Shown here in pieces: positions 16,721 to 45,632 of a stretch of 46,934 nt of DNA (positions are counted from its first letter, which is position 1; every line of letters starts with the position of its first letter). The notes beneath the pieces were generated by a model that had not been told where the DNA came from, searched no databases, and saw nothing but the letters and a program-made list of their open reading frames with translations. Where the stretch lies: NCBI GenBank assembly GCA_051960355.1, contig JBQCEJ010000013.1:1-46934 (forward strand), read 5' to 3'. The position numbers were made by a program, and so were the translations under genes. The stretch comes from Verrucomicrobiota bacterium. Its GTDB lineage: Bacteria; Verrucomicrobiota; Verrucomicrobiia; Limisphaerales; DASXHY01.

Positions 16721-16736
16721 TCCCCGTTTTCGGGGT
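16721..16736 (+). promoter_or_regulatory. Palindromic site F (TCCCCgttttcGGGGt) upstream of the EEP-GH92 unit
   Basis: One of five TCCCC-N6-GGGG(A) cores. It lies 140 nt upstream of the ATG at 16877 and shares GGCTCCCCGT.TTCGGGG with site C. Confidence 0.35.
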
Positions 16737-16876
16737 GTGGTCAGCGGCCGCCGTTCTTGGATAGAGTTCTTGCGCAGGGCGGACTCGCTGCGGATCTCAG
16801 GCCGTGGAAGTGGACGGCAACAAGCCCGGAGTGGAGAGCTAAAAATCGCCTGCGCAGGAAATCGCTAAGCCATCAA

Positions 16877-17794
16877 ATGGAAAATTCCGAATCAAAACGA
16901 AGACTGTTGCTCCAGTGTGGAGTCGTGCCCGCCCTGCTGGCGGCGGCGCTTGCTGCGTTTCACCCGCTCTCCAGGCAGGCGCAGGCCACCAATCCATCGT
17001 CGCCCGGCATGCTGACAGTGATGACTTACAACCTGAAATTCGCGAGCTCCAATTCGCCGAATGCCTGGTCGGTGCGGCGCCCGCTGATGCAAGAAGTTAT
17101 TCAGCAGATTGCCCCAGATGTCTTCGGCACGCAGGAAGGTCTCTACCCGCAACTGAAGGACATCGCCTCCGACCTGCCGGATTATGATTGGATCGGGTTG
17201 GGACGCGAGGGCGGCAGCCAGGGCGAATTCATGGCCGTGTTTTATCGAAGGGCGCGGTTTGAACCGCTCGCTTATGATCACTTCTGGCTCTCCGACACGC
17301 CGGAGGTCACCGGATCGAGCACATGGGGTAATCGCAATCGCCGCATGGTCACTTGGGTCAAATTCCTTGATCGCCAGACGCAGCAGGAGTTCTTGCTGTG
17401 GAATACGCACTTTGACAATGAAATCCAGGTCGCACGCGAGAAGGCCGCGAAGCTGGTGCGCAAACGCGTGGCGGCGCTCGACACCAAGCTGCCACTGATC
17501 CTCACCGGGGATTTCAACGCCGCTGCCGGCAACAACGAAGCCTACAATATCCTCACCGCTGGTGCTTTCTTCGCCGATACCTGGATGACAGCCAAGGAGC
17601 GCCAGGGCGAAGGTCTCAACACTTCCAACGGCTTCAAGGAAATTAGAAAAAATGGCGTCCGCATCGACTGGATTCTCACGCGAGGCAATGTCGTAACGGA
17701 ATCCACCAAGATCGTTACGTTCTCGCGCAACGGTCAGTTCCCCAGTGACCATTTCCCGGTCGTCGCGCGGATGCGCTTTCCCGAGTCGAAGTAG
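16877..17794 (+). CDS. Endonuclease/exonuclease/phosphatase (EEP) family protein, secreted
   Basis: ORF 16757..17794, trimmed to the ATG at 16877, which gives a signal peptide. VMTYNLKF, GTQEG, NTHFD, LTGDFN and the terminal SDHFPV motif are present. Confidence 0.85.
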   Translation: MENSESKRRLLLQCGVVPALLAAALAAFHPLSRQAQATNPSSPGMLTVMTYNLKFASSNSPNAWSVRRPLMQEVIQQIAPDVFGTQEGLYPQLKDIASDLPDYDWIGLGREGGSQGEFMAVFYRRARFEPLAYDHFWLSDTPEVTGSSTWGNRNRRMVTWVKFLDRQTQQEFLLWNTHFDNEIQVAREKAAKLVRKRVAALDTKLPLILTGDFNAAAGNNEAYNILTAGAFFADTWMTAKERQGEGLNTSNGFKEIRKNGVRIDWILTRGNVVTESTKIVTFSRNGQFPSDHFPVVARMRFPESK

Positions 17795-17922
17795 ATGGAA
17801 ATTTTTTTATGAGGAAGAAATTAAGTGAGGTGCAATCAGTGTCTTTACTGGGCCGCGATGAAATCCAAAACCACCATGGCATCGCCAGCGGAAAAGACTC
17901 TCAACGAAACGAACTGACCGCC

Positions 17923-20217
17923 ATGAAGCTGACTTTGAAAAACTATCGCAATCTCCGACCGCTGCTTGTGCTGCTGGGCGTGGGCGGATCAAACCTCTCG
18001 GCGCAAACCACCGCCGCGGAGCGGTTGCAACAGGTTGACCCGTTCATCGGCACGGGCTTTCACGGTCACACCTTTCCCGGGGCCACGACGCCGTTTGGCA
18101 TGGTGCAACTCAGCCCGGACACGCGCACTTCCGGCTGGGACGCCTGCGGCGGCTACTATGATGCCGACACGGAAATCTGGGGGTTCAGTCACACTCATCT
18201 GAGCGGCACGGGAATTGGTGATTATGGCGACGTGCTCTTGATGCCGTTCACGGGCGACGTCCGCATTGGCTCGGGCACTCCTGACAATCCGGATTACGGC
18301 TACCGATCGGCTTTCAACAAAACAAATCAGTTCGCAACTCCTGGATACTATCGCGTGTTGCTGGATCGCTTTCAGATCAAAGCGGAACTTTCGGCCACGC
18401 CGCGAGCGGGAATTCATCGTTACACTTTTCCAAAGGCGGACAACGCGGGCGTGGTCATTGACCTGAAGCACAGCATTCAAAATCGCCAGACAATTGAGGC
18501 GGGAATCGAGGTCGTCAACGACCACGAAATCAGTGGCTGGCGACACGTTCGAGGCTGGGCGCCGGATCGTTGGATTTACTTTCACGCCGAGTTTTCCAAA
18601 CCGTTTAAAGCTGAATTGTTTGTGGAAGACGTCTTGCAGAAAGGGCAGCCCGCCGTCACCGGCAAAAATGTCAAGGCGCGGCTGAACTTTGCGACGGCCG
18701 ATGCCGAAGCCGTGCTGGTCAAGGTTGGCATCAGTCCGGTGGACTGTGCCGGAGCGAAGAAGAATTTGGCGTCGGAAATACCCGGTTGGAATTTCGATGG
18801 GGTGGTGACGCAAGCGGCCGCGGCTTGGGCGGAGCAACTGGCGCGAATCCAAGTCAAAGGCGGCACAGCTGATCAACGGAAAATTCTTGCCACCGCCCTG
18901 TATCACACGGCGATTTGCCCCAACCTGGCCAGCGATGTCGATGGGCGTTATCGCGGCATGGATCAGAAGATTCATCAGGACACCGGCTACACCAACTACA
19001 CGGTGTTCTCGCTGTGGGACACGTTTCGCGCCCAGCATCCGCTTTACACCGTCATCAATCCGGACCTGGATCAGGCGTGGATTCGCGCATTGCTCCGCAA
19101 GCATGAGCAGGGCGGCATATTGCCGATGTGGGAACTGGCCGCCAATTACACGGGTTGCATGATCGGCTATCACGCCGTTCCCGTGATCGTGGATGCTTAC
19201 GTCAAAGGACTGCGCGATTTCGACGTCAACCAAGCGATGGCGGCCGTTCTGTTTGCCTCGCAAAACGACGCCCAGAAACCCATCCCTTACAACTCGACCG
19301 CCGTTCGCACCGCTTTGATGCCAAAGGGGAAACTTTACAATGCCACCCAAGGTTTCATTCCTGCTGACCTCGAAGGCAAGTCGGTGTCCAAGGCTCTGGA
19401 ATTCGCTTACAACGACTGGACCATCGCCACCCTGGCCCAGAGCCTTGGACGCGAGGAAACGGCGACGGAGTATTTCAAGCGCGCCCGCTTTTATCGTCAG
19501 TATTTCGATTCCCAGACCGGCTTCATGCGGGGGAAAAAAGCGGATGGAAATTGGGTGGAGCCGTTCAACCCAACCGACTCAAGCCACAAAGGAGGCGAAT
19601 ATGTGGAAGGCAACGCCTGGCAGTGGACGTGGTTTGTGCCGCAGGTCGTGCCTGGGTTGATGGGGTTGTTCGGCGGACGGGAGCCATTTGCCGCGAGGCT
19701 GAATGAGTTGTTCACGACCAGTTCCGCTCTCACCGGTGAGCAAATCTCAGGCGACATCACCGGCTTGATTGGCCAATACGCGCACGGGAACGAGCCAAGC
19801 CATCACATTGCCTATCTTTTCAATTGGGCGGAGCAACCGTGGCGCACGGCGGAAATTGTCAGCCAGATCATGACGGAATTCTATCAAGCCGCGCCCGCCG
19901 GTCTGATCGGCAATGAAGACGCCGGCCAGATGTCCGCGTGGTTTGTGCTGAGTTCCCTGGGCATCTATCAAGTCTGTCCGGGCGACCCGAATTTCTCGCT
20001 TGGCTGCCCTCTTTTTGACGAAGGCCGCGTGGCGCTGCCCGGCGGGAAGACCTTTGTGGTCAGGCGTCAGGACGCTTCCGCGCACAATAAATATGTCCAG
20101 CAAGTCACCTTGGACGGACGGCCGCTGAAATCCCCATTTATCCGCTACGCCGACATCATGGCGGGGAGCGAGCTGGTGTTTAAAATGGGCGATCAGAAAA
20201 TCGTTTTCTGGAAATAG
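17923..20217 (+). CDS. Glycoside hydrolase family 92 (alpha-mannosidase-like)
   Basis: VDPFIGTGFHGHTFPGATTPFGMVQLSPDT and GFSHTHLSGTG are GH92 hallmarks, along with GNEPSHHIAYLF and NEDAGQMSAW. The start was chosen at 17923 (signal peptide); the longest ORF starts at 17809. Confidence 0.92.
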   Translation: MKLTLKNYRNLRPLLVLLGVGGSNLSAQTTAAERLQQVDPFIGTGFHGHTFPGATTPFGMVQLSPDTRTSGWDACGGYYDADTEIWGFSHTHLSGTGIGDYGDVLLMPFTGDVRIGSGTPDNPDYGYRSAFNKTNQFATPGYYRVLLDRFQIKAELSATPRAGIHRYTFPKADNAGVVIDLKHSIQNRQTIEAGIEVVNDHEISGWRHVRGWAPDRWIYFHAEFSKPFKAELFVEDVLQKGQPAVTGKNVKARLNFATADAEAVLVKVGISPVDCAGAKKNLASEIPGWNFDGVVTQAAAAWAEQLARIQVKGGTADQRKILATALYHTAICPNLASDVDGRYRGMDQKIHQDTGYTNYTVFSLWDTFRAQHPLYTVINPDLDQAWIRALLRKHEQGGILPMWELAANYTGCMIGYHAVPVIVDAYVKGLRDFDVNQAMAAVLFASQNDAQKPIPYNSTAVRTALMPKGKLYNATQGFIPADLEGKSVSKALEFAYNDWTIATLAQSLGREETATEYFKRARFYRQYFDSQTGFMRGKKADGNWVEPFNPTDSSHKGGEYVEGNAWQWTWFVPQVVPGLMGLFGGREPFAARLNELFTTSSALTGEQISGDITGLIGQYAHGNEPSHHIAYLFNWAEQPWRTAEIVSQIMTEFYQAAPAGLIGNEDAGQMSAWFVLSSLGIYQVCPGDPNFSLGCPLFDEGRVALPGGKTFVVRRQDASAHNKYVQQVTLDGRPLKSPFIRYADIMAGSELVFKMGDQKIVFWK

Positions 20218-20330
20218 AAACGCGGGCGGTGTGGAAAGGGTGCCGCACCTGGAAAACTGGCAAACGGGACGTTCGATAATTATTTGACTGGCGCGACTTT
20301 TGAGGCAGTTATTGAGCATTGAAACGAGCC

Positions 20331-20346
20331 TCCCCTCATTCGGGGA
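20331..20346 (+). promoter_or_regulatory. Palindromic site A (TCCCCtcattcGGGGA) within the 25-nt hairpin GCCTCCCCTCATTCGGGGAATAGGC (20328-20352)
   Basis: Exact palindrome 158 nt upstream of the PATR gene ATG. It is preceded by TTATTGA (20309-20315) at the same spacing as at site C. Confidence 0.4.
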
Positions 20347-20504
20347 ATAGGCACGGTTGCCGAGGCTGCTAGTGTCGTCACATGTTTCTACCCTATCCAA
20401 TCCAGCGCAAAGCTGGATGCGATCGGGAAGTGTGGGGCAACCGGCTGATGGCGCAGGGGGGCGACGTGCGAGTTCTGGCCAGCGGCTCAAATACAAAATC
20501 CAGC

Positions 20505-23500: not shown

Positions 23501-24101
23501 TGGCACCGGCAACTCAGGCGATGGCATTCTGGTGCAATCGAATGCCGTGGCCAGACTGACTGGCACGCTGGCAAATCAAATCCCGAATGATGTGGAGACG
23601 AGGCTAAATGCCGGCGGCGTCTTTGATATGAACGGCAACAGCGAAACCATCGCCTTGCTGCGCATGACGAACGGCGTGTTGCGCAATGGTCTGGCCGGAA
23701 CCGCTTCCACGTTGACTACCGTCAATGGGAATGGGGTCATCCTTAGGAAGACAGATAACGTGTTTGACGTTCCGGATGCAGCCGCAAGCCTGACTATTGA
23801 CGGCAATGTCACGGGCCCGGGTTCATTGGTGAAATCCGGGGCGGGTGCTGTCACCGTGCAGGGAACCAATACCTACAGTGGCAATACCACCGTCAGCAAC
23901 GGAACCCTGACCCTCAACTTCCCCCTGCTTTCAACCAATTCCACCGTGCAGATCGACACGAACGGGGTGCTGAACCTGAACTTTGCCGGGGGAGAAACCA
24001 ACACCGTGGCCGCGCTCGTTCTGGGCGGGACGAACAAACTGGCGGGAATCTATAACGCGACGACCGATCCAACTTATCTCAACGGCTCAGAGCCTGTCTG
24101 A
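20505..24101 (+). pseudogene. Autotransporter-associated beta-strand repeat (PATR) giant secreted protein, 5' portion truncated by an IS insertion
   Basis: Signal peptide after the ATG at 20505. Many GGGTLTLSGANNYAGSTVISNGVL / GSGTLTLSGANTYAGGTTVSGGQL repeats. The reading frame runs into the IS left inverted repeat, which supplies the TGA at 24099-24101. Confidence 0.85.
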
Positions 24102-24986
24102 AAAAGGAGAAAGTGCTTGATTTTGTTGGTGGGTTGGTTGGTTTGTTATCGCGGTAGCGCCAGTGAGGCGATGAAAATCGCCAATTACGACACTGACCTG
24201 ACTGACGCCCAATGGACTTATCTCAAACCGATGCTTCCCAAGCCCGCCAAACGCGGACGCCCGACCAAAGATCGGAGGCGGATCGTTGATGCCATCCTCT
24301 ACCTCGTCAAATGCGGCTGTCCCTGGCGCTATCTGCCCGCCGACTTCCCCAACTGGAAAACCGTTTACCACGTCTTCCGCCAATGGGTCGCCAGCCATTA
24401 CTGGGCCGTCATTCACGACGCACTCCGCGTTCTGGTTCGCAGAACCCACGGCAGGTGCAGCCGTCCCACCGCCGCCGTTCTGGACAGCCAAAGCGTCAAG
24501 TCCTCCGGGCATGGCGGGCGCGTCGGCTACGACGCGGGCAAACGGATCAAAGGCCGCAAACGGCATCTGCTGGTGGACACTCTGGGATTGATTCTCGCGG
24601 TCACCGTCACTCCGGCCAGCACCACCGAACGGGACGGAGCACAATTGCTTTTGAAACCAGTCCTGGGCTGGCTCACCTGGTTGCGCATCCTGTGGGTGGA
24701 CGGCGGCTACAGCGGCGAAGCCTTCGCCCAATGGGTCAAGAATCTTCGCCCCAAATTGGCCGTTCAGGTAGTCAAACGTTCCGATGCCACCAAGGGGTTC
24801 AAGGTGTTGCCCCATCGCTGGGTGGTGGAGCGGACCTTTGGCTGGTTGATGCACCACCGCCGGTTGGTCCGCGATTACGAAACCACCGAATCCAGCGCCG
24901 AAGCCTGGATCTACATCGCGATGATCCGCATCCAACTCCGCCGCCTCGCTTGACCCCCAATCACTCATGATTTTTCAGACAGGCTC
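24090..24986 (+). mobile_element. Intact IS5-family insertion sequence (897 bp)
   Basis: Perfect 16-bp terminal inverted repeats GAGCCTGTCTGAAAAA (24090-24105) and TTTTTCAGACAGGCTC (24971-24986). A 3-bp TCA direct duplication flanks it (24087-24089 and 24987-24989). It carries a single DDE transposase ORF. Confidence 0.9.
24171..24953 (+). CDS. IS5-family DDE transposase (260 aa, uninterrupted)
   Basis: The ATG at 24171 follows GAGGCG. LTDAQW..L.P.LP, RGRP, CPWRYLP, AVLDSQSVK, LWVDGGYSG and VVERTFGWL are typical IS5/DDE_Tnp_1 motifs. Confidence 0.9.
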   Translation: MKIANYDTDLTDAQWTYLKPMLPKPAKRGRPTKDRRRIVDAILYLVKCGCPWRYLPADFPNWKTVYHVFRQWVASHYWAVIHDALRVLVRRTHGRCSRPTAAVLDSQSVKSSGHGGRVGYDAGKRIKGRKRHLLVDTLGLILAVTVTPASTTERDGAQLLLKPVLGWLTWLRILWVDGGYSGEAFAQWVKNLRPKLAVQVVKRSDATKGFKVLPHRWVVERTFGWLMHHRRLVRDYETTESSAEAWIYIAMIRIQLRRLA

Positions 24987-24989
24987 TCA

Positions 24990-25253
24990 GGCAGCTTGCG
25001 GGTTGTCCCGCTGGCGACAATCAATCCGCTGCCGGGCACAATTCAAGTCAGCGTCAGTGGCGGCACGCTCGCCTTGTCATGGCCCACCAACGCGGGCTGG
25101 ATACTACAAGCCCAGACCAATGCGCTAAGTGTGGGATTGGTTTCAAATAGCAATGCGTGGTTCAACGTTCCCGGTTCCGAACTGGTGACCAGCACGAATA
25201 TGCCGATCGTCCAAACAAATGGCGCGGTATTTTACCGGATGGTTCATCCGTGA
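24990..25253 (+). pseudogene. Displaced 3' end (about 87 codons) of the PATR gene, separated by the IS
   Basis: It is in the same frame (position mod 3) as 20505..24089. Deleting 24090-24989 joins ...LNGS to GSLRVVPLATINPL.... It encodes the same C-terminal module as the end of the next gene. Confidence 0.8.
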
Positions 25254-25420: not shown

Positions 25421-28357
25421 ATGAAGTCCGCCCCGGCCTCGCGTTGTCGGTTGGTTGGGATTGTCCTCGCCCTCGGTCTGTTTGGCTTCTTCGCTCCCAT
25501 TACTCCGGCAGCCGTGCCGAATGCTGATATCAACTTGGAGCCCGTCGTCACCGATAATCTCCCGCTTATCTCCAGTCTCACCGCTTACGTCTATCCGAAC
25601 GACCGTGATGCCGTTTCCATAACGCTGGGCGGCAGCAATGTCCTTTACGACGCCCCGCTTTACTACCCGTTCGATACCGACACTCCCGGCTGGTGGGATA
25701 ATCTCGTGGCGGAACAATTGCAGGCCCGCCTCCCGGTCGTCATGTTCGCCAGTCGCGGAGCGAAAACCACAAACTCAACCCAGATAGACGGGAGCATGAA
25801 TCCCCGTCAACTCACCCGCATGGTCGCCGCCCTGGAACGCGCCAATGCCACCAACCTTTTCAAGCTCGCCTGTTTCATCGATTCCCCGAACATGCAGGAC
25901 ATTTACACCTACATCAACGGCCTGCCTTCGAGCACTCTCTGCGACATGTCCAGCGCATCCGATTGGACCAATGTCTTCTGGCTGCGCGGGGTGAAGCCCT
26001 GGTTTGACACGGTGCCCCGCCAATACTGGTTTACCGTCAACGGGCGCCCCGTGATTCAATGGTGGCACATCGGCAACTCCTGGTTTAGCAATCAGAATGG
26101 CAATTTGAGCCGAATGCTCCAAGTTTTGGCGAATGCATTTGAAGCGACCTACGGTGTCCGCCCGGGCTTCGTTCTGCATCACAGTTGGCCGACCTACGAT
26201 CCCAGCTCAACCAATCAACCAGATGTAATCGGAGTGGACAAGTGGTTCAGCCCGCCCAACACCTCTTACACCTACAACACCTTCAACGGTTTCACTTCGG
26301 GAACCTTGGTGCCGGGCTTTATTGACTCGAGCACGTTCGACCCTACCAGCTCGAATTACCAGAACGCAAACCGCGTCATTCCCCACAACGGGATGGCGGG
26401 CACCGGCACCAATGGCGACACGCTTATCGCCGGACTCGAAGCCGGCGTGATCGCCAAGCCCCGGCTCACCGTTCTCGAAGGCTGGAACGACGTTCGCGAG
26501 TGGGCGGGTTACTATCGCTGTGGCAATTCGTCGCGCTACGACTTTCCCAGCCAATACATTAACATCGTCCGCCGCTACACCGACTTGCGCACCCGTTCGC
26601 TCCGCCTGGAAGCCGAGGGTGCCGACGCCTACAACGACACCACCGCGGGCAATTCCGGCGGTGCGTGGCGGCGCTTCGGCGATCTGGACATCCGACCGCT
26701 CAGCGGCAGTGGTTGGGCCGTCACCGCCACCGCCGCCGGTGAGTGGGTTGAGTTCAAACAGATTAACTTTTCTGCCGGCAATTACCGCTTCCCGATCTGC
26801 TACGCTGCGTCGGCGTCGCGCACGGTTCGTCTGCTCATTGACGGCGTGCCGCTGCCCGATGTGGTTCTGCCTGCCACCGGGGGCACGAACAACTTCGACA
26901 CCTTCTCCCTTGGCTCCGCGGCCATCGCTCATGGCATCCACAACCTGAGGCTTTATTTTGTGGACGGCGGGGTGGACGTCGATTGGATTTTTGTCAGGAA
27001 ATACGATCCGGCGGTGACGTTTCAATCGGCAGTGAATGGTTGTTATCTCACCGCCGCTTGGGGCGGCAACGATGCGATGGTTTGCAATTGGACGGCGGCG
27101 GGCGCTTGGGAGCAATTCACAGTGGATGACCTGGCCGCCGGCGGTTCGCTCGTCAGCAGCAATAGTGTCAACCTCCAGGCTTACAATGGCCTTTATTTGT
27201 CCGCGACGAATGGCGGTGGTTCGTCCGTGCTGGCCAAAAAACGCACTCCGGCGAGCGCTGAAAATTTTTATCTCGTGAAGATCGGCGGCACCGGCACTCT
27301 CACCAACGGAAGCCAGGTGGCCATCAGAACCTCAGGCGGCAAGTATATTACCGTCAAGCTGGACGGCAGCGTTGACGCGAGCGGGGCGAGCATTGGAACG
27401 GCGCAGACATTTACCGTTAAGCTGGCGGGGGAGTTTATGCCGGTTACGCCAGTCGCTTCAACTCCCACCGGCCTGGTCGCCTCCGCAACGAGCAGCCGGA
27501 TCACTCTCTTCTGGACGGCCATCCCCGGAGCCATGAGTTACAACGTCAAGCGCGCTCCCAGCAGTGTCGGGCCTTACACCATCATCGCGGCCAACGTGAC
27601 CGCCACCACCACTTATGTTGATGCGTCGGTGTCTGCCGGGACGACTTATTACTATGTGGTCTCCGCCGTGAACTCTGGGGGTGAGAGCCCCAACTCCGTT
27701 CCCGCCGCCGCGCTATTTCCGATCATTTTGTCACAGGGCGCACCGGTCACGGCCAGCAGCCAACAGGGCGGAAATGAAGCGTTTAAAGGCAATGATGATG
27801 ACTCCGCTACGCGCTGGGCCGCTTCCGGTCCGGGGATGCCGCAATGGTGGCAGGTGGATTTGGGCACTAATCGCGATATAACCGGCGTGACCATTGAGTG
27901 GTACAACAGCAGTACGCGGGGTTACGGATATCAAATCGCGGTCAGCAGCGACAACGAGAACTTCACCACCGTCGTGGATAGGTCAGGGAACACGTCGTTG
28001 GGAGATGCCACGGAAAATTTCTCCGCTCTGCGCAAACGATTCGTCAAAATCACGGTGACCAGCTGCACGCAAGCGAATGGTTATGCTTCGTTTCACGAAT
28101 GCAGAGTTTATGGGGCGAGTACCCCGGCGGTGGCATTGAATCCGACCAATCTCACGGCGGTCGTTTCCGGCAATAGCTTGACGTTTTCCTGGCCAGCTGA
28201 TCATCTGGGCTGGTGGTTGCAGGTTCAGACAAATTCATTGCTTTCAGGATTGGGCACGAACTGGGTGACGCTGCCCGGATCTGATTTGGTGACCAGCACG
28301 AACATAACCATCAATCCCGCCAATGGCGCCGTGCTTTACCGATTGATTTATCCGTGA
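25421..28357 (+). CDS. Secreted multidomain carbohydrate-active protein
   Basis: Signal peptide after the ATG at 25421. Domain order, with approximate nt positions: an N-terminal ~400-aa catalytic-like domain of unrecognised family; CBM6-like (LRLEAEGADAY...GEWVEFKQINF..., ~26600-27000); beta-trefoil/fascin-like (~27010-27430); Fn3 (SYNVKRA...TTYYYVVSAVNSGGES, ~27460-27710); F5/8 type C (SATRWAA...WWQVDLG, ~27720-28110); and a C-terminal module ending YRLIYP. Confidence 0.8.
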   Translation: MKSAPASRCRLVGIVLALGLFGFFAPITPAAVPNADINLEPVVTDNLPLISSLTAYVYPNDRDAVSITLGGSNVLYDAPLYYPFDTDTPGWWDNLVAEQLQARLPVVMFASRGAKTTNSTQIDGSMNPRQLTRMVAALERANATNLFKLACFIDSPNMQDIYTYINGLPSSTLCDMSSASDWTNVFWLRGVKPWFDTVPRQYWFTVNGRPVIQWWHIGNSWFSNQNGNLSRMLQVLANAFEATYGVRPGFVLHHSWPTYDPSSTNQPDVIGVDKWFSPPNTSYTYNTFNGFTSGTLVPGFIDSSTFDPTSSNYQNANRVIPHNGMAGTGTNGDTLIAGLEAGVIAKPRLTVLEGWNDVREWAGYYRCGNSSRYDFPSQYINIVRRYTDLRTRSLRLEAEGADAYNDTTAGNSGGAWRRFGDLDIRPLSGSGWAVTATAAGEWVEFKQINFSAGNYRFPICYAASASRTVRLLIDGVPLPDVVLPATGGTNNFDTFSLGSAAIAHGIHNLRLYFVDGGVDVDWIFVRKYDPAVTFQSAVNGCYLTAAWGGNDAMVCNWTAAGAWEQFTVDDLAAGGSLVSSNSVNLQAYNGLYLSATNGGGSSVLAKKRTPASAENFYLVKIGGTGTLTNGSQVAIRTSGGKYITVKLDGSVDASGASIGTAQTFTVKLAGEFMPVTPVASTPTGLVASATSSRITLFWTAIPGAMSYNVKRAPSSVGPYTIIAANVTATTTYVDASVSAGTTYYYVVSAVNSGGESPNSVPAAALFPIILSQGAPVTASSQQGGNEAFKGNDDDSATRWAASGPGMPQWWQVDLGTNRDITGVTIEWYNSSTRGYGYQIAVSSDNENFTTVVDRSGNTSLGDATENFSALRKRFVKITVTSCTQANGYASFHECRVYGASTPAVALNPTNLTAVVSGNSLTFSWPADHLGWWLQVQTNSLLSGLGTNWVTLPGSDLVTSTNITINPANGAVLYRLIYP

Positions 28358-28577
28358 CGCAGGCCTTGTCTGCTGTATCGCTGGCTAATCAACCTGCCAC
28401 GTGATAACCTCGCGACGCGCTGCCGATTTGCAAACCGGCGCTACAGCACGTTGTGAAACGCTGCGCTACAAGCTTTGGAAGGTCTGTGCCTAATGCTGGG
28501 TGAATATCCGGGCTAAGCCCGCTCTGATCGCCCTCTGACGATTTTCTACTGCATTAAGTGTTTAAGCCCGTGCGGCC

Positions 28578-28593
28578 TCCCCCCTTTCGGGGA
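28578..28593 (+). promoter_or_regulatory. Palindromic site B (TCCCCcctttcGGGGA) within the hairpin GCCTCCCCCCTTTCGGGGAATAGGC (28575-28599)
   Basis: Exact palindrome 80 nt upstream of the ATG at 28674 (17 nt upstream of the alternative ATG at 28611). Confidence 0.4.
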
Positions 28594-28673
28594 ATAGGCA
28601 ATCCAGCGGTTTGATACATGATATGGCTATGAATCTTGGTTATCCCGATCAACCACACACTGGCATTGGTTCC

Positions 28674-31318: not shown

Positions 31319-31768
31319 ATGAAAACATTGCTCGATTTTGCTGCCGCCGCGCTGGCACTCCTGTTGCCGGCCTCCGCTCAGAACGACTCCGCCGCCCAGC
31401 AACTCGGCTGGACGCTCGCGGTTCACTCTTACACCTTCCAGAAATTCTCCATTTTGGAGGCGATTGATAAAACCGCAGCGGTCGGCGTGAAACACATGAG
31501 CATATCCGGCAGCGTGAATCTGCCGGACACAGATGGGAAGTTCACCAAAGCTTCAACCATCCGGATGACGACGAACGATGTTGCCGCCATCACGGATCGG
31601 ATGAAGGCGAAGGGGATTGATCCAGTGTTTGTGAACATGGGCGTGGTCAAGCCAGGCATCGATGAGGCCGAGAGCCGGAAGATTTTTGAAGGCGCGAAAC
31701 GTCTCGGCATCACCGTCCTGGTGGCTGAACCGGAAACGCACGACAAGATGGAAGAACTTGGCCCGTAA
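31319..31768 (+). CDS. Sugar phosphate isomerase/epimerase (xylose-isomerase-like TIM barrel), N-terminal half with signal peptide
   Basis: GWTLAVHSYTFQKFSILEAIDKTAAVGVKH...ITVLVAEPE matches the first half of a ~290-aa family common in PVC/Bacteroidota. It ends at a TAA that overlaps the next ATG. Confidence 0.6.
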   Translation: MKTLLDFAAAALALLLPASAQNDSAAQQLGWTLAVHSYTFQKFSILEAIDKTAAVGVKHMSISGSVNLPDTDGKFTKASTIRMTTNDVAAITDRMKAKGIDPVFVNMGVVKPGIDEAESRKIFEGAKRLGITVLVAEPETHDKMEELGP

Positions 31769-32214
31769 TGGACGTGGTGGAGAAACTCGCCATCGAATAC
31801 AACATCAAGGTCGCCATCCATAATCATCCCGGCCCGAAAAATTTTTATTGGAACCCCGACACCGTGGCCGCCGCTGTCAAAGGCCGCAGCCCGTTGCTGG
31901 GCGCGTGCGCGGACGTGGGACATTGGGTGCGCTCCGGGCTGGATCCAGTCGCGTGCCTCAAGAAATTGGAAGGTCGCGTGATCACACTGCTTTTCAAGGA
32001 TCTCAACGTGCCTGGCCCCAAAGCGCACGATGTGCCGTGGGGCACCGGCATCAGCAACGCGAAAGGCATGCTCGCCGAATTGCAACGTCAGAAGTTCAAG
32101 GGCGCCATCTGCATCGAATACGAATACAACTGGGAGAACTCCTCGCCAGAAATTGCCCAGTCTGTGGCTTGGTTCAATGCCACCTGTGCCGAACTGGTGC
32201 GCGCGGGACAATAA
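31768..32214 (+). CDS. Sugar phosphate isomerase/epimerase, C-terminal half (split or frameshifted)
   Basis: VEKLAIEYNIKVAIHNHPGPKNFYWNPDTV...GACADVGHW...LLFKDLN...AHDVPWGTG...ICIEYEY matches the second half of the same family. Confidence 0.6.
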   Translation: MDVVEKLAIEYNIKVAIHNHPGPKNFYWNPDTVAAAVKGRSPLLGACADVGHWVRSGLDPVACLKKLEGRVITLLFKDLNVPGPKAHDVPWGTGISNAKGMLAELQRQKFKGAICIEYEYNWENSSPEIAQSVAWFNATCAELVRAGQ

Positions 32215-35257: not shown

Positions 35258-37296
35258 ATGAAACGCAGCATCACATCCGTTCTCATCGCACTGGTCGCAC
35301 TCGTCTCCGCGCAAGCGGCCACGAAGCCGGTGCGCGTCTTCATTCTTGCCGGACAATCCAACATGGAAGGGCACGGCTTCGTTTCCGCCGATCCGAAGCG
35401 CAACGGCGGGAAAGGTTCGCTGGAGTTTGTGGCGAAAGACCCGGACACGGCGCAACACTTCGCGCCGCTTGTCGATGCCACTGGGCAGTGGCGCACGCGC
35501 GACGATGTGTGGATCAGTTACCTCGACCGCCAAGGTCCGCTTACAGTCGGCTACGGCGCGCGCGCGGAGATGATCGGGCCTGAACTCGGCTTTGGCTGGG
35601 TGATGGGCGACGCGCTGGACGAGCCGGTGTTGCTCATCAAATGTGCTTGGGGCGGCAAGAGTCTCGCGGTGGATTTCCGTCCACCCAGTGCAGGCAAGCC
35701 GCCGTATTCGCTGGGCGAAAAGGGCGACGCCGCCATCGCGCAAGATCCTGCCATCATTGGGAAATATTATCGCGACACGCTGGCGCTCACGAAGGCCGCG
35801 CTGGCGAATATCAAGAATCTTGTGCCCGGAAGCGACGGCAGTTATGTGCTCGCGGGCTTTGCCTGGCACCAAGGTTGGAACGACCGTATCAACGACAAGT
35901 TCAACGCGGAATACGAAACCAACATGGCCTGCTTCATCCGTGATATTCGCAAAGACCTTGGCGCGCCGGCGCTGCCGTTTGTGATTGCCGAAACCGGCAT
36001 GACCGGGCCGGAGGAGAAGAACCCGCATGCGCTGTCATTGATGAAAGTGCAGGCCGCTGTGGCGGAGAATCCAGAGTTCAAGGGCAATGTGGCGTTCGTC
36101 GGCACCAGGGCCTTCTGGCGCGCTGAAAATCAGTCACCGACCAGGCAGGGTTACCATTGGAACTCAAATGCCGAAACTTACTATCTCATCGGCGAAGCGA
36201 TGGGCCGCGCGATGAAACAGTTGCTGGATGCGGAAAAAATTGCGCCGCCCACGGCCGCGTCGGACCGTGTTTCCGTCCGGCCTGAACTCGCCGTCACTAC
36301 GATCGGTTTTGGCTCCTGCGCCAAGCAAGAACGGCCCGAGCCCATCTGGAATACTATTAATGCCGAGCACTGCGATGCGTTTGTCCTCCTCGGCGACAAC
36401 ATCTACGCCGACACTTCCGATGCGACCGTGTTCCGACAGAAATACGCCCTGCTGGCGGCTATGCCGGGCTTCGCCAGACCACGCCGCTGTTTGCCACTTG
36501 GGACGATCACGATTACGGCACGAACGACGGCGGTGCGGGCTTCGTCGGCGCGGCGACCGCGCAAAAAGAGTTTTGTGATTTCTTTCAAGTGCCCGCGAAT
36601 TCACCGCTGCGCACCACGCCCGGGGTTTATGACTGCGTGACGCTTGGGCCGATCGGCAAGCGCGTCCAACTCATTCTCCTCGATACGCGAATGTTTCGCT
36701 CGCCGTTGAAAAAAGATTCCGCCAATCCCAAGGTTACCATTCCCAACACCGATCCTGACGCGACCGTGCTTGGCGAAGGGCAGTGGGCTTGGCTCGAGCG
36801 GCGCTTGCGCGAACCGGCGGAAATCCGCGTGGTGGTTTCCAGCATCCAGTTCATCGCGAATGAACACGGCTCGGAGAAGTGGGACAACTTCCCCAAGGAA
36901 CGCGCGCGGTTCATCGAACTTCTCCGCCGCACGCAAGCCAAAGGCGTCGTAGTTATCAGCGGTGATCGCCATATGGCCGAGCTTTCCATGCTCACACCCC
37001 CAGACGGAGTTGCCTATCCGCTCTATGATCTCACCACGAGCGGTCTCAACCTGGAAGTCCCTCCCAAGCCAGCGGCGCAGGAGACCGGACCGACCAAGCC
37101 CAAGGAAGCCGCTCCCAAGAAACCGCAGATCAATCGTTATCGTCTCCACGAGCGTCCCTACACGAGTTCCAACTTTGGCCTCATGCGCATCCAATGGGAC
37201 GACCCGAATCCTTCTCTTCGCCTGGAGGTCTGCGGATTGAAGGGCGAGGTTGTCATTTCCCGCGACATTCCTTTCGTCGAAATTCATCCAAAGTAA
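35258..37296 (+). pseudogene. SASA (sialate O-acetylesterase-like, DUF303) domain fused to a PhoD-like metallophosphatase, interrupted by a frameshift near 36461-36481
   Basis: N-terminal part: signal peptide plus VFILAGQSNMEG, AWHQGWND and the GYHWNS esterase motifs. The same frame continues into the PhoD-like start (IGFGSCAKQ, VLLGDNIYAD). The PhoD continuation (TPLFATWDDHDYGTNDGG ... VVISGDRHMAEL) is in the neighbouring frame (ORF 36589..37296, open back to 36361). The as-is ORF 35180..36640 ends in an Arg/Pro-rich out-of-frame tail. Confidence 0.8.
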
Positions 37297-37329
37297 GGCT
37301 GAATTGCGCCACGCCCGGGAAACCAATTT

Positions 37330-38329: not shown

Positions 38330-38345
38330 TCCCCGCAAGTGGGGA
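38330..38345 (+). promoter_or_regulatory. Palindromic site D (TCCCCgcaagtGGGGA, followed by AT)
   Basis: Exact palindrome 62 nt upstream of the sulfatase ATG at 38408. Flanking CGCC/GGCG could extend the stem. Confidence 0.35.
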
Positions 38346-38407
38346 ATGGCGGAAGGAATAATTTTCATCATCCTGTTCGCATACTGACGCAAACCAATCC
38401 CACCAAA

Positions 38408-40039
38408 ATGAAAGCGTTACGAATAATCATTGCCAGTCTGTTCGCTGTGCTGGCCGCGTGGCCGGCGACCGCTGCCACGCAGGCAACCAGCCAATCCGCC
38501 GTCGCCGAACCCGCGAAACCCAACATCCTTTTCATCTATTCCGACGACCACGCGCAGCACGCCATTTCGGCTTACGGCTCGAAGGTGAACCAAACGCCGA
38601 ATATTGATCGCCTCGCCCGGGAAGGCGTGCGGTTCAAGAATTCCTTTGTCGCCAATTCCATCTGCACCCCAAGCCGGGCCACGTTGCTCACCGGGCAGTA
38701 TTCGCACTTGAACGGAGTGCCGGTCTTTAATCGCTTGGACGGCGCGCGCGACAACGTCGCCAAACACCTGCAAGCCGGCGGCTACCACACCGGCATGATC
38801 GGCAAGTGGCACCTCGGCTCGGATCCCACGGGCTTTGATCGCTGGATTGTCCTTCCCGGCCAGGGCGAGTATTGGAATCCCACTTTCCTGGTTGCCGGTC
38901 ACAAGCTCACCATCGAAGGCCACTGCACCGACATTACCACCGAACTCGGAATCGAATTTCTGAGGACGCGTCCGCTAGACAAGCCTTTCTTTCTCATGCT
39001 GCATCAAAAAGCGCCGCACCGACCCTGGGAGCCCACGGAACGTCACCGCGCCATGTTCCAAGCTAAAGTCATCCCTGAACCCGACACGCTTTGGGATGAT
39101 TACCACACGCGCCCCGCCGCACTGCCCGCGAATCAGCAGACCGTCGCCAAAGACCTCACCCGTCGCGATCTCAAGCTCGCGCCGCCCGCCGGCCTCAAAG
39201 GCCCCGCGCTCAATCAATGGCTCGCAGGCAAGCCCATGGAACTCACCGTGGACGGCAGGACCCTCACCGGCAAGGAACTCGTGAAGTGGAAATACCAGCG
39301 CTACATGCGCGATTACCTTGCTTGCGTGCAGGGCGTGGATGATAGCGTGGGAAAAGTGCTCGACTACCTTGACCAGACTGGTTTGGCGACCAATACCATT
39401 GTCATCTATTCCGCCGACAACGGCTGGTATCTTGGCGACCTTGGCCTTTACGACAAACGTTTCATGTATGAGCCCGGCCTGAATGTCCCGCTTCTGGTTC
39501 GCGGCCCGGGTATCAAGGCGGGCATTGTCCCCACGCAGTTTGTGGCGAACATTGATCTCGCGCCCACCTTCCTCGACCTTGCGGGACTACCCATCCCGGC
39601 TTCGATGCAAGGGCGTTCGCTCGCCCCGTTGCTGCGCGGTGAAGCCCCGGCCGACTGGCGCACGAGTTTTTATTACCGCTACTATCACGACCCTGGACAT
39701 CACAATACCGCTGCGCATTACGGCGTCCGCACGGCCACGCACAAGCTGATTTACTACTGGAAAAAGGACGCCTACGAGCTGTTCGATCTCACCCAGGATC
39801 CCACCGAGCAGCACAACCTGCTCTTCTCCGAGGCTGAGGCCCGGCAGCCCGCTGTGGCGGCAAAGTTCGCCGAACTGAAAGCCGAGATGGCCCGCCTGCA
39901 AAAAGAATTCAAGGACGACGGCCAATACGCCGACGCCGCCACCTGGCCCAAGTCCAGCGCCGATGGTCCCTTCGACGCCTACAAACCGACGGGCAACAAA
40001 ACCATCGCTGAAGCCATCGCTGCTGCCGCCGTCAAATGA
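38408..40039 (+). CDS. Sulfatase (GlcNAc-6-sulfatase-like), Cys-type
   Basis: ORF 38279..40039, trimmed to the ATG at 38408 (signal peptide). ILFIYSDDH, SICTPSRATLLTGQY, GKWHLG, KPFFLMLHQKAPHRPW and YSADNG are present. Confidence 0.9.
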   Translation: MKALRIIIASLFAVLAAWPATAATQATSQSAVAEPAKPNILFIYSDDHAQHAISAYGSKVNQTPNIDRLAREGVRFKNSFVANSICTPSRATLLTGQYSHLNGVPVFNRLDGARDNVAKHLQAGGYHTGMIGKWHLGSDPTGFDRWIVLPGQGEYWNPTFLVAGHKLTIEGHCTDITTELGIEFLRTRPLDKPFFLMLHQKAPHRPWEPTERHRAMFQAKVIPEPDTLWDDYHTRPAALPANQQTVAKDLTRRDLKLAPPAGLKGPALNQWLAGKPMELTVDGRTLTGKELVKWKYQRYMRDYLACVQGVDDSVGKVLDYLDQTGLATNTIVIYSADNGWYLGDLGLYDKRFMYEPGLNVPLLVRGPGIKAGIVPTQFVANIDLAPTFLDLAGLPIPASMQGRSLAPLLRGEAPADWRTSFYYRYYHDPGHHNTAAHYGVRTATHKLIYYWKKDAYELFDLTQDPTEQHNLLFSEAEARQPAVAAKFAELKAEMARLQKEFKDDGQYADAATWPKSSADGPFDAYKPTGNKTIAEAIAAAAVK

Positions 40040-42914: not shown

Positions 42915-43052
42915 AGCCGATCACGCGGAGGAATGGGCACCGGACTGGGACAACCCGTAAACGGCATGTTCGAAGTGGATTGTCTTGCGACTGGGGCCAA
43001 ACCATGGGTTATATAAGGTCCTGACGCCCTTGGAAAACAAGGGTCGCTTCTA

Positions 43053-44834
43053 ATGAGCTTTCTGAAACATGAGAGTGGTTGCGGTTTTCTGAGGGCAATG
43101 TTGAGTCTTGGAGCAGTTGCCGCTGCGTCGCTCCTGGCTGTGCCAGCGGCCATGGCCCAGAGCCACCGGGATTCCCCGCCAGATTATTCCTCCAATTCCA
43201 AGGACCAAAACCCAGAGTTGACGTTGCGTTCGGTCAAAGTCAACGACCGGGAATTGCAGGGCGTTTCCATGGCGGGGGTGGACCTGCCGGCGCACCCTGG
43301 AGTTACCAGCATCTCCTTTGGCCCCAACCGGGGCGTTTCGAATGGGCCGATCCGGTTTCGCTGCCAGCTCGACGGTTACGAGTCGGTCTGGCATGAACGT
43401 TCGGTGGTAATGCGGCTGTTGATCCGGTTCATTGATGCCAACGAGCGGGACATCGCCGAGCAGATTTTTACCGTAAGCGGGGAAAGCCCGGGGTGGACAG
43501 GCAATTTCAACGATTCTCCCTGGGTTCATCGGAAAGAACTCATCACGGTCCCTCCGAATGCCGTGCGATTCTGGGTGGTGATTTCCTCGGCAGGACCGCC
43601 TGAAGCGGTGGGGGTTTTTGCCGTGCGGAACCTGAGGGTGTGGCCGTCTCGGAGCGAGACTAACGGGATTTTGATGATTCCCCCGGTGGAGCGCGAGGCC
43701 AGCAAAGCGGCGATTGAAGCAACTGAAGTATCGCCCGTGGGGTGGGGGCGGGCGGGTATCCGGCCGGACGATGCCCGTCTCGTGCGCTGCGGCCCGGGTT
43801 CGGAGGTGGCGCTGGCCATTTTCGATGATCATCCGCTGGGTCATGCGGACTGGGGTACGGCGAAGGCACGAGGGCCCAAACTCACGCCGGGAGAAACGCT
43901 GACGTTAAAATGGGAGGAGGTCTACAGCATTGGTCCGGCGGATTATGGCGTGGCGCTTTACACCAATCTTCCGGCAGGACTCTACCGATTTCGGATGGAA
44001 GCTTTGGACCTCATGGGGATTCCGAGCGGGCGCAATATTTCCTTCCCGGTGACGGTGCCGGTCGCGTTTTGGAGAACGGTTTGGTTTTGGGTGACTGCCG
44101 GGGTGGCATTGGTTGGGCTGGCGGTTGGCAGGTTGCGGCTGGTCGAGGCGCAGAAGATGAAGCGTCAGGTCCAGAATCTCGAGCGGCAGCGGGTGCTGGA
44201 GCAGGAACGTTTTCGAATTGCGCAGGACATCCACGATGATTTGGGCGCGCGGGTGGCGCAGATTTCCCTGTTGAGTTCTGCGGCGGAGGAGAAGGAATCG
44301 TTGTCCGTCGCCGAGGCGAGGGTGGAACTGGGCATGGTTTCACGGATGAGCCAGGAACTGGTGGCGGCGTTGTATGAAACGGTTTGGGCGGTCAGCCCTG
44401 AAAACGACCATCTGGATTCGCTGATCAGTTATGTCTGCCAAGTAGCGGATCAGATGTGTGCCGCGGCCCATTTGAAATGCCGCTTTGAGATGCCGGACAT
44501 GGCGCCGGCCACTTTTCTGCCCAGCAATATCCGGCACAACCTGATCATGACCATCAAGGAAGCCATTCACAATGTGATCAAGCATGCGCATGCCTCGGAG
44601 ATTCAGATCCGCATTCAGCTCGCGAGTGGAGTGTTGCGCGTTCAAGTGAGCGACAACGGCTGCGGCTTCGATGTCGGGTCCATCGTTCGCGGCAACGGTC
44701 TGGACAATATGGAGCGCCGGTTGCGTTCGATGGGCGGACGCTGTTCAGTGGAGAGCCAGCCCGGGGCGGAAACTCGGGTGAAAATCGAGCTGCCCTTGCC
44801 GGGTTTAACTTCAATTCCTCCCCAACCCAACTAA
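43053..44834 (+). CDS. Sensor histidine kinase (HisKA_3 + HATPase_c) with an extracytoplasmic Y_Y_Y-like sensor region
   Basis: Signal/TM segment, then a ~330-aa outer domain ending YTNLPAGLYRFRMEALD...PVAFWRTVWFWV (Y_Y_Y-like, followed by a TM helix). H-box RFRIAQDIHDDLGARV. ATPase motifs VSDNGCGF and GNGLDNMERR. Confidence 0.88.
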   Translation: MSFLKHESGCGFLRAMLSLGAVAAASLLAVPAAMAQSHRDSPPDYSSNSKDQNPELTLRSVKVNDRELQGVSMAGVDLPAHPGVTSISFGPNRGVSNGPIRFRCQLDGYESVWHERSVVMRLLIRFIDANERDIAEQIFTVSGESPGWTGNFNDSPWVHRKELITVPPNAVRFWVVISSAGPPEAVGVFAVRNLRVWPSRSETNGILMIPPVEREASKAAIEATEVSPVGWGRAGIRPDDARLVRCGPGSEVALAIFDDHPLGHADWGTAKARGPKLTPGETLTLKWEEVYSIGPADYGVALYTNLPAGLYRFRMEALDLMGIPSGRNISFPVTVPVAFWRTVWFWVTAGVALVGLAVGRLRLVEAQKMKRQVQNLERQRVLEQERFRIAQDIHDDLGARVAQISLLSSAAEEKESLSVAEARVELGMVSRMSQELVAALYETVWAVSPENDHLDSLISYVCQVADQMCAAAHLKCRFEMPDMAPATFLPSNIRHNLIMTIKEAIHNVIKHAHASEIQIRIQLASGVLRVQVSDNGCGFDVGSIVRGNGLDNMERRLRSMGGRCSVESQPGAETRVKIELPLPGLTSIPPQPN

Positions 44835-44836
44835 CT

Positions 44837-45490
44837 ATGTCGCTACAGAAAAATAATCCCAAGCTCCGTCGCGTGGCCGTGGTTGAGGACGACAGCGGGT
44901 TGCGAAACCAATTGGAGCGCATCCTTGATTCCGCCCCCGGAGTTTGCTGTGTGGGCACCTTCAGTTCTGCGGAGAAAGCGTTGGAGGGAATGGCCGCCGC
45001 CCAGCCCGATGTCATCTTGATGGATATCAATCTGCCCGGAATGTCAGGCATCGAGTGTGTCGCGCGACTCCGGAAAGAACTGTCGGTGGCCCATGTCATC
45101 ATGCTGACCATCTATGAGGACAGTGAGCGCATTTTTCAGGCGCTCCAGGCGGGTGCGGATGGTTATCTGGTCAAGGCCAGCCCGACCAAGACGTTGCTCC
45201 AGGCAATTGAGGACGTTTATATGGGTGGCTCTCCCATGTCCAGCCACATTGCCCGCAAGGTGGTCCGGCAATTTCGGCAGCCTGATTTTTCGCACGACGA
45301 AACCAAGAGTCTGTCGCCGCGGGAACGGGAGACGCTGGAGTTGCTCGCCGCCGGCTATGTGTACAAAGAAATTGCCGACAAGATGGGCATTGGCAGCGAG
45401 ACCGTGCGCACGTACATCAAAGGGGTTTGCAAGAAACTACATGTGCGCAACCGGATTGAAGCGGTCGCCCGTTATTCTGCCTTGAAATAG
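44837..45490 (+). CDS. Response regulator, NarL/LuxR family (REC + LuxR-type HTH)
   Basis: VAVVEDD, DVILMDINLPGMSG, LVKAS, then LSPRERETLELLAAGYVYKEIADKMGIGSETVRTYIKGVCKKLHV. Confidence 0.92.
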   Translation: MSLQKNNPKLRRVAVVEDDSGLRNQLERILDSAPGVCCVGTFSSAEKALEGMAAAQPDVILMDINLPGMSGIECVARLRKELSVAHVIMLTIYEDSERIFQALQAGADGYLVKASPTKTLLQAIEDVYMGGSPMSSHIARKVVRQFRQPDFSHDETKSLSPRERETLELLAAGYVYKEIADKMGIGSETVRTYIKGVCKKLHVRNRIEAVARYSALK

Positions 45491-45509
45491 GTGAGGCTCG
45501 AGTAACCAG

Positions 45510-45535
45510 CGTGCTCCAGGAGCGCGATTTTTCTT
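45510..45535 (+). terminator. Putative rho-independent terminator after the response regulator
   Basis: The stem CGTGCTC / GAGCGCG (7 bp including one G-U pair, 3-nt loop) is followed by ATTTTTCTT. Confidence 0.45.
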
Positions 45536-45616
45536 CGTTCCCCGGGCCGCGGGGTTCGTGGTGATGTTCCATTCCCCGGCGTTTGCTTTTGGTCTTATTG
45601 ACGTTCGGGAACAGGC

Positions 45617-45632
45617 TCCCCGTATTCGGGGA
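45617..45632 (+). promoter_or_regulatory. Palindromic site C (TCCCCgtattcGGGGA) within GGCTCCCCGTATTCGGGGAATAGGC (45614-45638)
   Basis: Exact palindrome 158 nt upstream of the ATG at 45791, the same distance as site A. It is preceded by TTATTGA (45595-45601). Confidence 0.4.

Follow-up and report, generated by a model that had tools for sequence, protein, structure and literature searches.

The locus considered here, a glycan-degradation island of a Verrucomicrobiota bacterium of the order Limisphaerales, raises the question of what five copies of a short GC-rich palindrome, TCCCC-N6-GGGGA, are doing at the heads of its genes. The DNA analysed (the window) is a stretch of 46,934 nt from contig JBQCEJ010000013.1 of assembly GCA_051960355.1, with the island lying at 16-47 kb. 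We propose that the palindrome is an operator in the promoters of glycan-degradation operons and that the NarL-type response regulator encoded in the same island would be its binder, a combination that we regard as likely from comparison of sequences. That the element is a promoter-embedded protein-binding site of some kind is highly probable; as to the protein, we lean with less assurance towards the neighbouring regulator, which would act as an activator.

Five palindromes at the heads of transcription units

Exact matches to TCCCCNNNNNNGGGGA occur four times in the window, at 20331, 28578, 38330 and 45617, all on the plus strand. Dinucleotide-preserving shuffles predict 0.04 such matches, and none of 100 shuffles reaches four. 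A first-pass annotation of this DNA had listed five copies and had judged that the pattern should occur well under once by chance; both statements are upheld, as is its remark that the fifth copy, at 16721, departs from the core at one position (the final A is a T). By itself this copy is within chance, as 1.8 one-mismatch matches are expected in the window. We count it in the family because it is identical to copy E at 18 of 20 bases (AGGCTCCCCGT.TTCGGGG), carries a 3' extension (GGGG-TGTGG) that agrees with the consensus ARTRG at four of five bases (relatives carry AGTGG), lies in intergenic DNA in the same orientation as the gene downstream, and is followed 26 nt downstream by the hexamer TAGAGT. 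The five sites are as follows.

16721-16736, plus strand: site A, TCCCCGTTTTCGGGGT, between a tRNA gene on the minus strand and the EEP and GH92 unit that diverges from it (ATG at 16877)
20331-20346, plus strand: site B, TCCCCTCATTCGGGGA, within a 26-nt unit at 20328-20353, upstream of the PATR giant gene (ATG at 20505)
28578-28593, plus strand: site C, TCCCCCCTTTCGGGGA, within a 26-nt unit at 28575-28600, upstream of a prepilin-like gene (ATG at 28674)
38330-38345, plus strand: site D, TCCCCGCAAGTGGGGA, upstream of a sulfatase-sulfatase-metallophosphoesterase operon (ATG at 38408)
45617-45632, plus strand: site E, TCCCCGTATTCGGGGA, within a unit at 45614-45639, upstream of the terminal beta-helix gene (ATG at 45791)

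All five sites are intergenic, as had been claimed, in a window of which about 6.6% is intergenic by our gene map; they occupy the five largest gaps of the island, and each has the orientation of the gene downstream of it. Between the core's last base and the likeliest ATG lie 140 nt at A, 158 at B, 80 at C, 62 at D and 158 at E. The functions assigned to the units 3' of the sites are likewise confirmed by Pfam, and comprise EEP with GH92, the PATR giant gene, the prepilin-like gene that heads a TIM-barrel, sulfatase and esterase run, the two sulfatases with a metallophosphoesterase, and the terminal beta-helix gene. Sites B, C and E share the unit GCCTCCCC-N6-GGGGAATAGGCA, so that the report of a common unit in three copies stands, with its length measured at 26 nt.

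Conservation in related lineages

Contigs of relatives were fetched by way of orthologues of the response regulator (71-93% identical), and 10 lineages were sampled in this manner; individual loci are referred to by handles such as L120 where they need to be told apart. In these relatives the element takes the form T-CCC(C/A)-N6-GGGG-A-R-T-R-G and recurs at operon heads. The gap just 3' of the regulator gene carries the motif in all 10 lineages; in the window this is the position of site E, which lies 127 nt past the regulator stop codon and has a counterpart at the orthologous position in every relative fetched. Site B is orthologous to the sites 3' of the regulator gene in L136 and L123. Further copies in the relatives head sulfatase, MFS-GH99-GH92-kinase-regulator, GH99 and kinase-regulator units.

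The window and the relatives together provide 21 distinct sites, all of which are intergenic and point at the downstream gene, with none in coding DNA. The CCC and GGGG bases are invariant in all 19 sites that were aligned, and a variant, TCCCA-CCTTTA-GGGGA, recurs in four lineages (L120, L133, L136 and L140) with its spacing of 24-26 nt to a -10-like hexamer retained. The DNA flanking the motif cannot be aligned between lineages, so that the flanks have diverged and the motif has been kept, which argues that the motif itself is under selection. Gene order is kept as well, running from GH92/GH99 through the kinase, the regulator, a large PATR or approximately 800-residue protein, a protein of approximately 716 residues and a prepilin-like protein to carbohydrate-active enzymes (CAZymes) and sulfatases. 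The general proposal that the palindrome is a regulatory element heading plus-strand units is thus borne out: alignment of orthologous intergenic regions finds it at orthologous promoters, and it is present at other operon heads of the relatives as well.

The 23-mer CTCCCCNNNNNNGGGGAATAGGC was also scanned in 185,579 genomes (one per species) and in the Joint Genome Institute (JGI) metagenomes. These scans returned 53 and 63 matches, all of them single, at about the number estimated for chance, and none near a homologue of any window protein; in none of the 185,579 species genomes is the exact 23-mer present in multiple copies. As the collection scans do not rise above chance level, the AATAGGC tail appears to be specific to this lineage, and the 23-mer is too narrow a pattern because the relatives carry AATAGCG or AGTGG tails.

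Promoter geometry

The position of the element relative to a putative -10 hexamer is the second property that recurs. With the sites aligned on the G-run, 13 of the 21 have TANNNT starting 24-26 nt past its final G; the flanking DNA of these sequences gives a background of 0.4% per position, and hence a binomial P of about 3e-20. The hexamers seen are TAGTAT, TAGGAT, TAAGGT, TAGTGT, TAAAGT, TAATAT, TAGAGT and others, and the relaxed form NANNNT is found at that spacing in 18 of 21 sites. The candidate promoter elements in the window are listed below.

16762-16767, plus strand: -10-like hexamer TAGAGT of site A, 26 nt after the G-run
20348-20353, plus strand: weak -35-like TAGGCA of site B
20367-20369, plus strand: extended -10-like TGC of site B, directly before TAGTGT
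20370-20375, plus strand: -10-like hexamer TAGTGT of site B, 24 nt after the G-run
28617-28622, plus strand: weaker -10-like hexamer CATGAT of site C, 24 nt after the G-run, with A2 and T6 kept
38369-38374, plus strand: weak -10-like hexamer CATCCT of site D, 24 nt after the G-run; of the five, the assignment that convinces least
45654-45656, plus strand: TGC before the site E hexamer, as at site B
45657-45662, plus strand: candidate -10 hexamer TTTGAT of site E, 25 nt after the G-run, which does not fit NANNNT and is tentative

If the hexamer is taken as the -10 element, the dyad would occupy about -51 to -36 and be centred near -43.5. The bases then at the -35 position are TAGGCA (four of six matches to TTGACA, with a 16-bp spacer) or ATAGCG (one or two of six), counts that should be read with the reservation that the sigma preferences of this phylum may differ. 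A consensus scan of positions 16000-46934 found no TTGACA-N16-18-TATAAT promoter with at least 9 of 12 matches, against about 5-6 per half expected from shuffles. Such a deficit suggests either depletion of sequences resembling canonical promoters or another -35 preference in this lineage, and the lack of a canonical promoter in the island fits dependence on an activator. The layout would thus be that of a class-II activator-dependent promoter. The start position indicated by this geometry also argues that the upstream in-frame starts of the genes behind sites B, C and D (20382, 28611 and 38279 respectively) are not real, as their codons would fall at the putative transcription start or ahead of it.

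Other promoter assignments were considered and set aside. TTGACG or TTGAGC could be taken as the -35 element 13 nt upstream of sites B and E, which would place the dyad over the -10; this arrangement occurs in two paralogous leaders only, and the distances are different elsewhere. A sigma-54 promoter was dismissed by eye on spacing, and the tRNA promoter was uninformative as a reference for the local sigma-70 consensus.

The geometry also bears on the proposal, made in the first-pass annotation, that the palindrome is a hairpin overlapping a -35 element of the extracytoplasmic function (ECF) type. In its broader form this would make the palindrome part of the recognition element of an alternative sigma factor, ECF-type or other, with GGGGAAT as the -35. 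ECF promoters typically have GGAAC/T at -35, a spacer of 16-17 nt and a -10 of the CGT/GTC type; GGAAT resembles the former, the 3' extension A-R-T-R-G is both oriented and conserved, the island is without canonical sigma-70 promoters, and the element does abut the -35 position. The downstream hexamer, however, is TAnnnT rather than CGT/GTC-like and follows GGAAT at 21-22 nt, a distance that exceeds an ECF spacer. Moreover, the upstream half-site TCCC, 11 bp off and just as invariant, would be left unexplained, and the window has no sigma or anti-sigma gene. We consider recognition by an alternative sigma factor distinctly improbable.

RNA structure, termination and repeats

The first-pass annotation had also offered a hairpin in the 5' RNA as a possible role, and a stem-loop in the 5' untranslated region or between cistrons could in principle serve as a stabiliser, a processing site or a protein-binding structure. 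Most copies do have a GC stem, 4-5 bp long and closing a loop of 6 nt, and come after a gene on the same strand, and some of the 36-nt contexts fold better than their shuffles (z-scores down to -3.8). Yet across the five core pairs of the 19 aligned sites there is not one compensatory change, and the three departures that do occur each break a pair; the recurrent TCCCA variant sets A opposite G and leaves only 3 bp. RNAalifold recovers only the 5-bp core from these sites, and the outer GCCT/AGGC stem previously drawn for the shared unit (GCC/GGC in B and C) is not conserved in relatives. Searches of Rfam returned tRNA only for the whole window at gathering thresholds, and nothing at E<=1 for the intergenic regions of B and E. 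The fixed spacing to the -10 hexamer places the element upstream of the likely start, and both at site E and in L136 a canonical terminator lies ahead of it. The role in a 5' RNA hairpin finds no support in the comparison, and we judge it very improbable indeed; the element appears to be constrained in sequence rather than in structure.

The terminators themselves bear on a further alternative, in which the palindrome would be a factor-independent terminator or insulator of the gene upstream, or a repeat without regulatory role, of the repetitive extragenic palindromic (REP) or miniature inverted-repeat transposable element (MITE) kind. The one relevant feature of the window is the following.

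45510-45536, plus strand: canonical intrinsic terminator, a 7-bp stem with a T-run after it, located between the regulator stop codon and site E

A canonical terminator is also present between the regulator gene and the motif in L136. As the terminator at 45510-45536 is upstream of site E, site E does not act as the terminator for the operon of the kinase and regulator, and at site A and at the kinase site of L130, both of which lie between diverging genes, a terminator would have no role. The palindrome is GC-rich and four of the five window copies sit between same-strand genes, as a terminator or a dispersed repeat might; however, no T-run follows it on either strand (the tail is AATAGGC), and a terminator scan does not report the sites. 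What is conserved is short (about 16-25 nt), always oriented to the downstream gene and kept in position across genomes. A terminator or functionless repeat is scarcely credible on these grounds. The REP-like reading in particular was rejected on the shortness of the shared unit, the orientation of 21 of 21 sites to the downstream gene and the absence of copies from coding DNA; the conserved length is only 16-26 nt, and there are neither terminal repeats nor duplicated flanks.

A second GC palindrome, CCCC-GGGCCGC-GGGG, with a 7-nt spacer, lies at 45540-45554 between the regulator terminator and site E, about 63 nt upstream of the latter; it could be a second post-terminator hairpin or a weak auxiliary site.

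A separate structured element is found 3' of the motif. The leaders of the PATR and beta-helix genes, of about 120 nt, share a conserved block in the window, in L120 and in L123, L129 and L136. The block includes a hairpin of approximately 23 nt (20454-20477 and 45741-45763 in the window, about 8180-8202 in L120), located 28-50 nt before the ATG, the stem of which varies by lineage yet stays paired (for example CAAGGUUCGC/GCGAGCUUUG versus CAGGCUUU/AAAG-CCUG). The RNAalifold consensus of seven sequences has compensatory changes at 8 of 14 pairs, and three of six of the hairpins fold clearly better than their own shuffles. No Rfam match was found for the block, which may be a leader RNA element.

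The kinase-regulator pair

The regulator at 44837-45490 had been described as the only one encoded in the island. A NarL-type regulator is indeed present there, and the description is corrected by the histidine kinase gene immediately before it, which encodes its partner.

43053-44834, plus strand: sensor histidine kinase with a signal/transmembrane segment, a periplasmic domain of about 310 residues, a second transmembrane segment, HisKA_3 and HATPase_c
44837-45490, plus strand: NarL/FixJ-family response regulator with Response_reg and a GerE-type helix-turn-helix (Pfam), the proposed binder of the palindrome

The periplasmic domain of the kinase has only a weak match to Y_Y_Y. The closest solved structure to the regulator is NarL (1a04, E = 1.7e-31), and DevR (3c3w, E = 6e-26) and VraR also match. 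Its recognition helix, ETV(R/K)TY(I/V)K..CKKL, is nearly invariant across orthologues and paralogues, a property that we pair with the invariance of the CCC/GGGG half-sites; the residues aligned with what we take to be the base-contacting Lys-Val-Lys of NarL are Arg/Lys-Thr-Lys. The half-sites TCCC(C/A) and GGGGA have their centres 11 bp apart. Among the roles put forward in the first-pass annotation, that of an operator for a dimeric helix-turn-helix protein, with the NarL/LuxR-type regulator named as the candidate, is consequently the one we favour, given the invariant half-sites, the fixed spacing to the -10 and the placement of the motif beside regulator genes.

Two further patterns connect the motif with the pair. 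In L130 and L120 it precedes the kinase-regulator operon, and in L129 an MFS-GH99-GH92-kinase-regulator operon, which suggests that the pair may be autoregulated. In the window the kinase and regulator genes come after the site D operon, across a 138-nt gap and with no predicted terminator between. The second pattern concerns two clades of regulators: the sites of clade I, which includes the window regulator, read CT-CCCC-(ACATGT or nnnTTC)-GGGG-AATAGGC, and those of clade II read AT-CCC(C/A)-nCTTTA-GGGG-AATAGCG. In one genome, L120, both paralogues occur in tandem and each is followed by the site flavour of its own clade; outside L120 the pattern is confounded with phylogeny.

The tandem kinase-regulator duplication of L120 occupies positions 2938-7905, and its kinases are 77% identical overall and 100% identical over the first approximately 80 residues, suggesting recent gene conversion or partial duplication at their 5' ends. 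In L125/L126 (6038-9971) a full-length primary-type sigma-70 gene (628 residues, regions 1.1 to 4) lies immediately 5' of the orthologous kinase gene and overlaps the kinase start.

We can combine these elements into a working model. The kinase at 43053-44834 would sense a periplasmic signal, presumably a glycan given the genomic context, and would then phosphorylate the regulator at 44837-45490. The phosphorylated regulator would occupy the palindromes, with the dimeric helix-turn-helix protein recognizing the half-sites TCCC(C/A) and GGGGA. Bound at a dyad beside a poor -35 sequence (TAGGCA or ATAGCG), it would be placed to contact RNA polymerase in the manner of a class-II activator, and would turn on the EEP and GH92 unit, the PATR gene, the prepilin-like/sulfatase run, the sulfatase operon and the beta-helix gene. 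Activation from site D would probably include the kinase and regulator genes downstream. What the sequences show directly is the motif with its conservation and orientation, its fixed distance from the -10-like hexamer and its linkage to the regulator gene; the start position, binding by this regulator, activation over repression and the identity of the signal are matters that we infer.

A number of observations weigh against this model or limit it. On the promoter side, strict TANNNT is absent from 8 of the 21 sites and is present in only A and B among the window copies, and the assignment of the hexamer as a -10 draws on a consensus borrowed from other phyla. Activation and repression are not separable from sequence alone. 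The element can form a hairpin, with folding energies of -12 to -20 kcal/mol for the 36-nt contexts (z-scores of -0.7 to -3.8), and may have an added role at the level of RNA or of a DNA cruciform. As for the regulator, the motif is linked to it by proximity only, and sites A-D are 5-29 kb from its gene; the gap directly 5' of the window kinase gene (42915-43052) has no site, and a site directly upstream of the kinase genes of L118 and L133 was looked for and not found. The paralogous regulators of the relatives share almost the same recognition helix, which makes the assignment of paralogue to site ambiguous, and the adjacency of motif and regulator is partly built into sampling by way of the regulator.

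Some of these points lend themselves to a different binder. The palindrome could be an operator at the same promoter position for another dimeric regulator encoded elsewhere, such as a CRP/FNR-like or global carbon regulator, possibly a repressor that blocks the -35, and the neighbouring two-component system would then be merely one of its targets. CRP sites have an identical 5-6-5 geometry, only one of the five window sites is close to the regulator gene, the enzymes of the regulon seemingly act on different substrates, and the regulator-based sampling of relatives is biased. However, apart from the kinase-regulator pairs and one small GerE protein (L133), no regulator is encoded in the window or in the fetched loci, motif and regulator gene co-occur in 10 of 10 lineages sampled, and the division of sites into two subtypes follows that of the regulators into two clades, also within L120. 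We therefore regard a different regulator as unlikely and retain the neighbouring NarL-type protein as the candidate.

Other features of the island

The PATR giant gene is interrupted by an IS5-family insertion sequence of approximately 905 bp (24086-24990) with 20-nt terminal inverted repeats (CTCAGAGCCTGTCTGAAAAA / TTTTTCAGACAGGCTCTCAG) and a transposase of 260 residues (DDE_Tnp_1 and DUF4096; 24171-24953). The gene resumes past the insertion with its C-terminal 87 codons, at about 24990-25253. This C-terminal part and that of a DUF5010/carbohydrate-binding module protein (28091-28357) share a domain of about 85 residues with no Pfam annotation, following the pattern ...SWP...GW.LQ.QTN.L...W...PGS.LVTSTN..I...NGAV.YR..(H/Y)P*; over their final 84 nt the two coding sequences have 74% DNA identity, and the domain may be a sorting or secretion signal of this lineage.

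Two regions of the island have fragment-like genes. At 31319-32214 there are two adjacent open reading frames of about 149 codons, the second of which matches only the C-terminal half of a xylose-isomerase-like TIM barrel, and at 36589-37296 a 235-codon open reading frame matches only positions 150-332 of the PhoD profile. These may be pseudogenes, or frameshifts in the assembly of a metagenome-assembled genome.

Discussion

As read here, the palindrome would belong to a familiar class of promoter element, and it has a sequence for which we find no described counterpart; the statement in the earlier annotation that no described motif matches it stands, with Rfam and a literature search giving nothing. 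The Dev boxes of DevR/DosR in Mycobacterium tuberculosis are 20-bp palindromes built on GGGAC/GTCCC and usually occur as tandem cooperative pairs. DevR is a member of the NarL subfamily whose start-site-proximal boxes overlap the -35 element and whose activation of transcription is phosphorylation dependent (PMC3029386). By analogy this appears to be the closest precedent, the two systems having in common a regulator with a receiver and a GerE-type helix-turn-helix and a G/C-rich dyad operator. They differ in the operator sequence, in the single dyad at each of the present promoters, in phylum, and in serving hypoxia in the one case and glycan catabolism in the other.

Other systems resemble this one in part. 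LuxR and TraR boxes are dyads centred near -42 over a weak -35 and followed by a normal -10, where the activator would contact RNA polymerase, and the present dyad would have a similar position over a weak -35 before a -10; LuxR and TraR, however, are acyl-homoserine-lactone receptors, and their boxes are of 18-20 bp, A/T-rich and without sequence similarity to this dyad. The class-II sites of CRP (TGTGA-N6-TCACA, with the centre at -41.5) share the 5-6-5 layout and, approximately, the promoter position, but their half-sites are unrelated in sequence and no CRP/FNR-family gene is present in the window or the fetched loci. NarL of Escherichia coli, the closest solved homologue, binds inverted repeats as a dimer; its heptamers, TACYYMT, form A/T-rich 7-2-7 inverted repeats at variable and often multiple positions, and both their composition and 2-bp spacer and the base-contacting residues differ from those seen here. 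In Bacteroides, polysaccharide utilization loci are controlled by hybrid two-component systems, by SusR or by ECF sigma/anti-sigma pairs. The logic, in which a periplasmic sensor of glycans would control the CAZyme and sulfatase operons next to its gene, is alike, and the weak Y_Y_Y match recalls the hybrid sensors; the Bacteroides hybrids have an AraC-type output, whereas the present system is composed of two proteins, a HisKA_3 kinase and a NarL-type output, with another cis element in another phylum.

We found no paper on the regulation of glycan-degradation loci in free-living Verrucomicrobiota, and a search of the literature for the motif or for Verrucomicrobial regulons gave nothing relevant. 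The present loci are without the SusC/D and hybrid two-component signatures by which those of Bacteroidota are defined. As a regulon motif the element is undescribed, the mechanism itself being textbook, and the module of dyad and kinase-regulator pair would define a two-component regulon in Limisphaerales glycan loci. It also offers an initial, indirect look at how promoters are built in this order, with a TAnnnT -10 and no canonical -35.

A more extended reading, which we put forward as speculation that is rather doubtful as a whole, is that the dyad and the kinase-regulator pair form a master regulon throughout the Limisphaerales, coupling an uncharacterised apparatus for surface glycan capture to CAZymes and sulfatases. 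That apparatus could consist of the PATR/beta-helix giant protein, the protein of approximately 716 residues and the prepilin-like protein. The paralogous regulators might each read a version of the site, CT-CCCC-ACATGT-GGGG versus AT-CCC(C/A)-nCTTTA-GGGG, as a small operator code that would divide glycan loci among sensors, and the conserved hairpin in the long PATR leaders might add a second layer of control.

In practical terms, the operator TCCCMNNNNNNGGGGARTRG followed by a -10 can be searched for and is tied to a kinase-regulator pair, so that regulons and the heads of operons could be marked with it in metagenome-assembled genomes. It brings together sulfatases, GH92 and GH99 enzymes, PATR proteins and prepilin-like proteins in probably co-regulated units and permits simple tests in cultured relatives. 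Such marking of regulons would be of use in a group that is uncultured and ecologically important.

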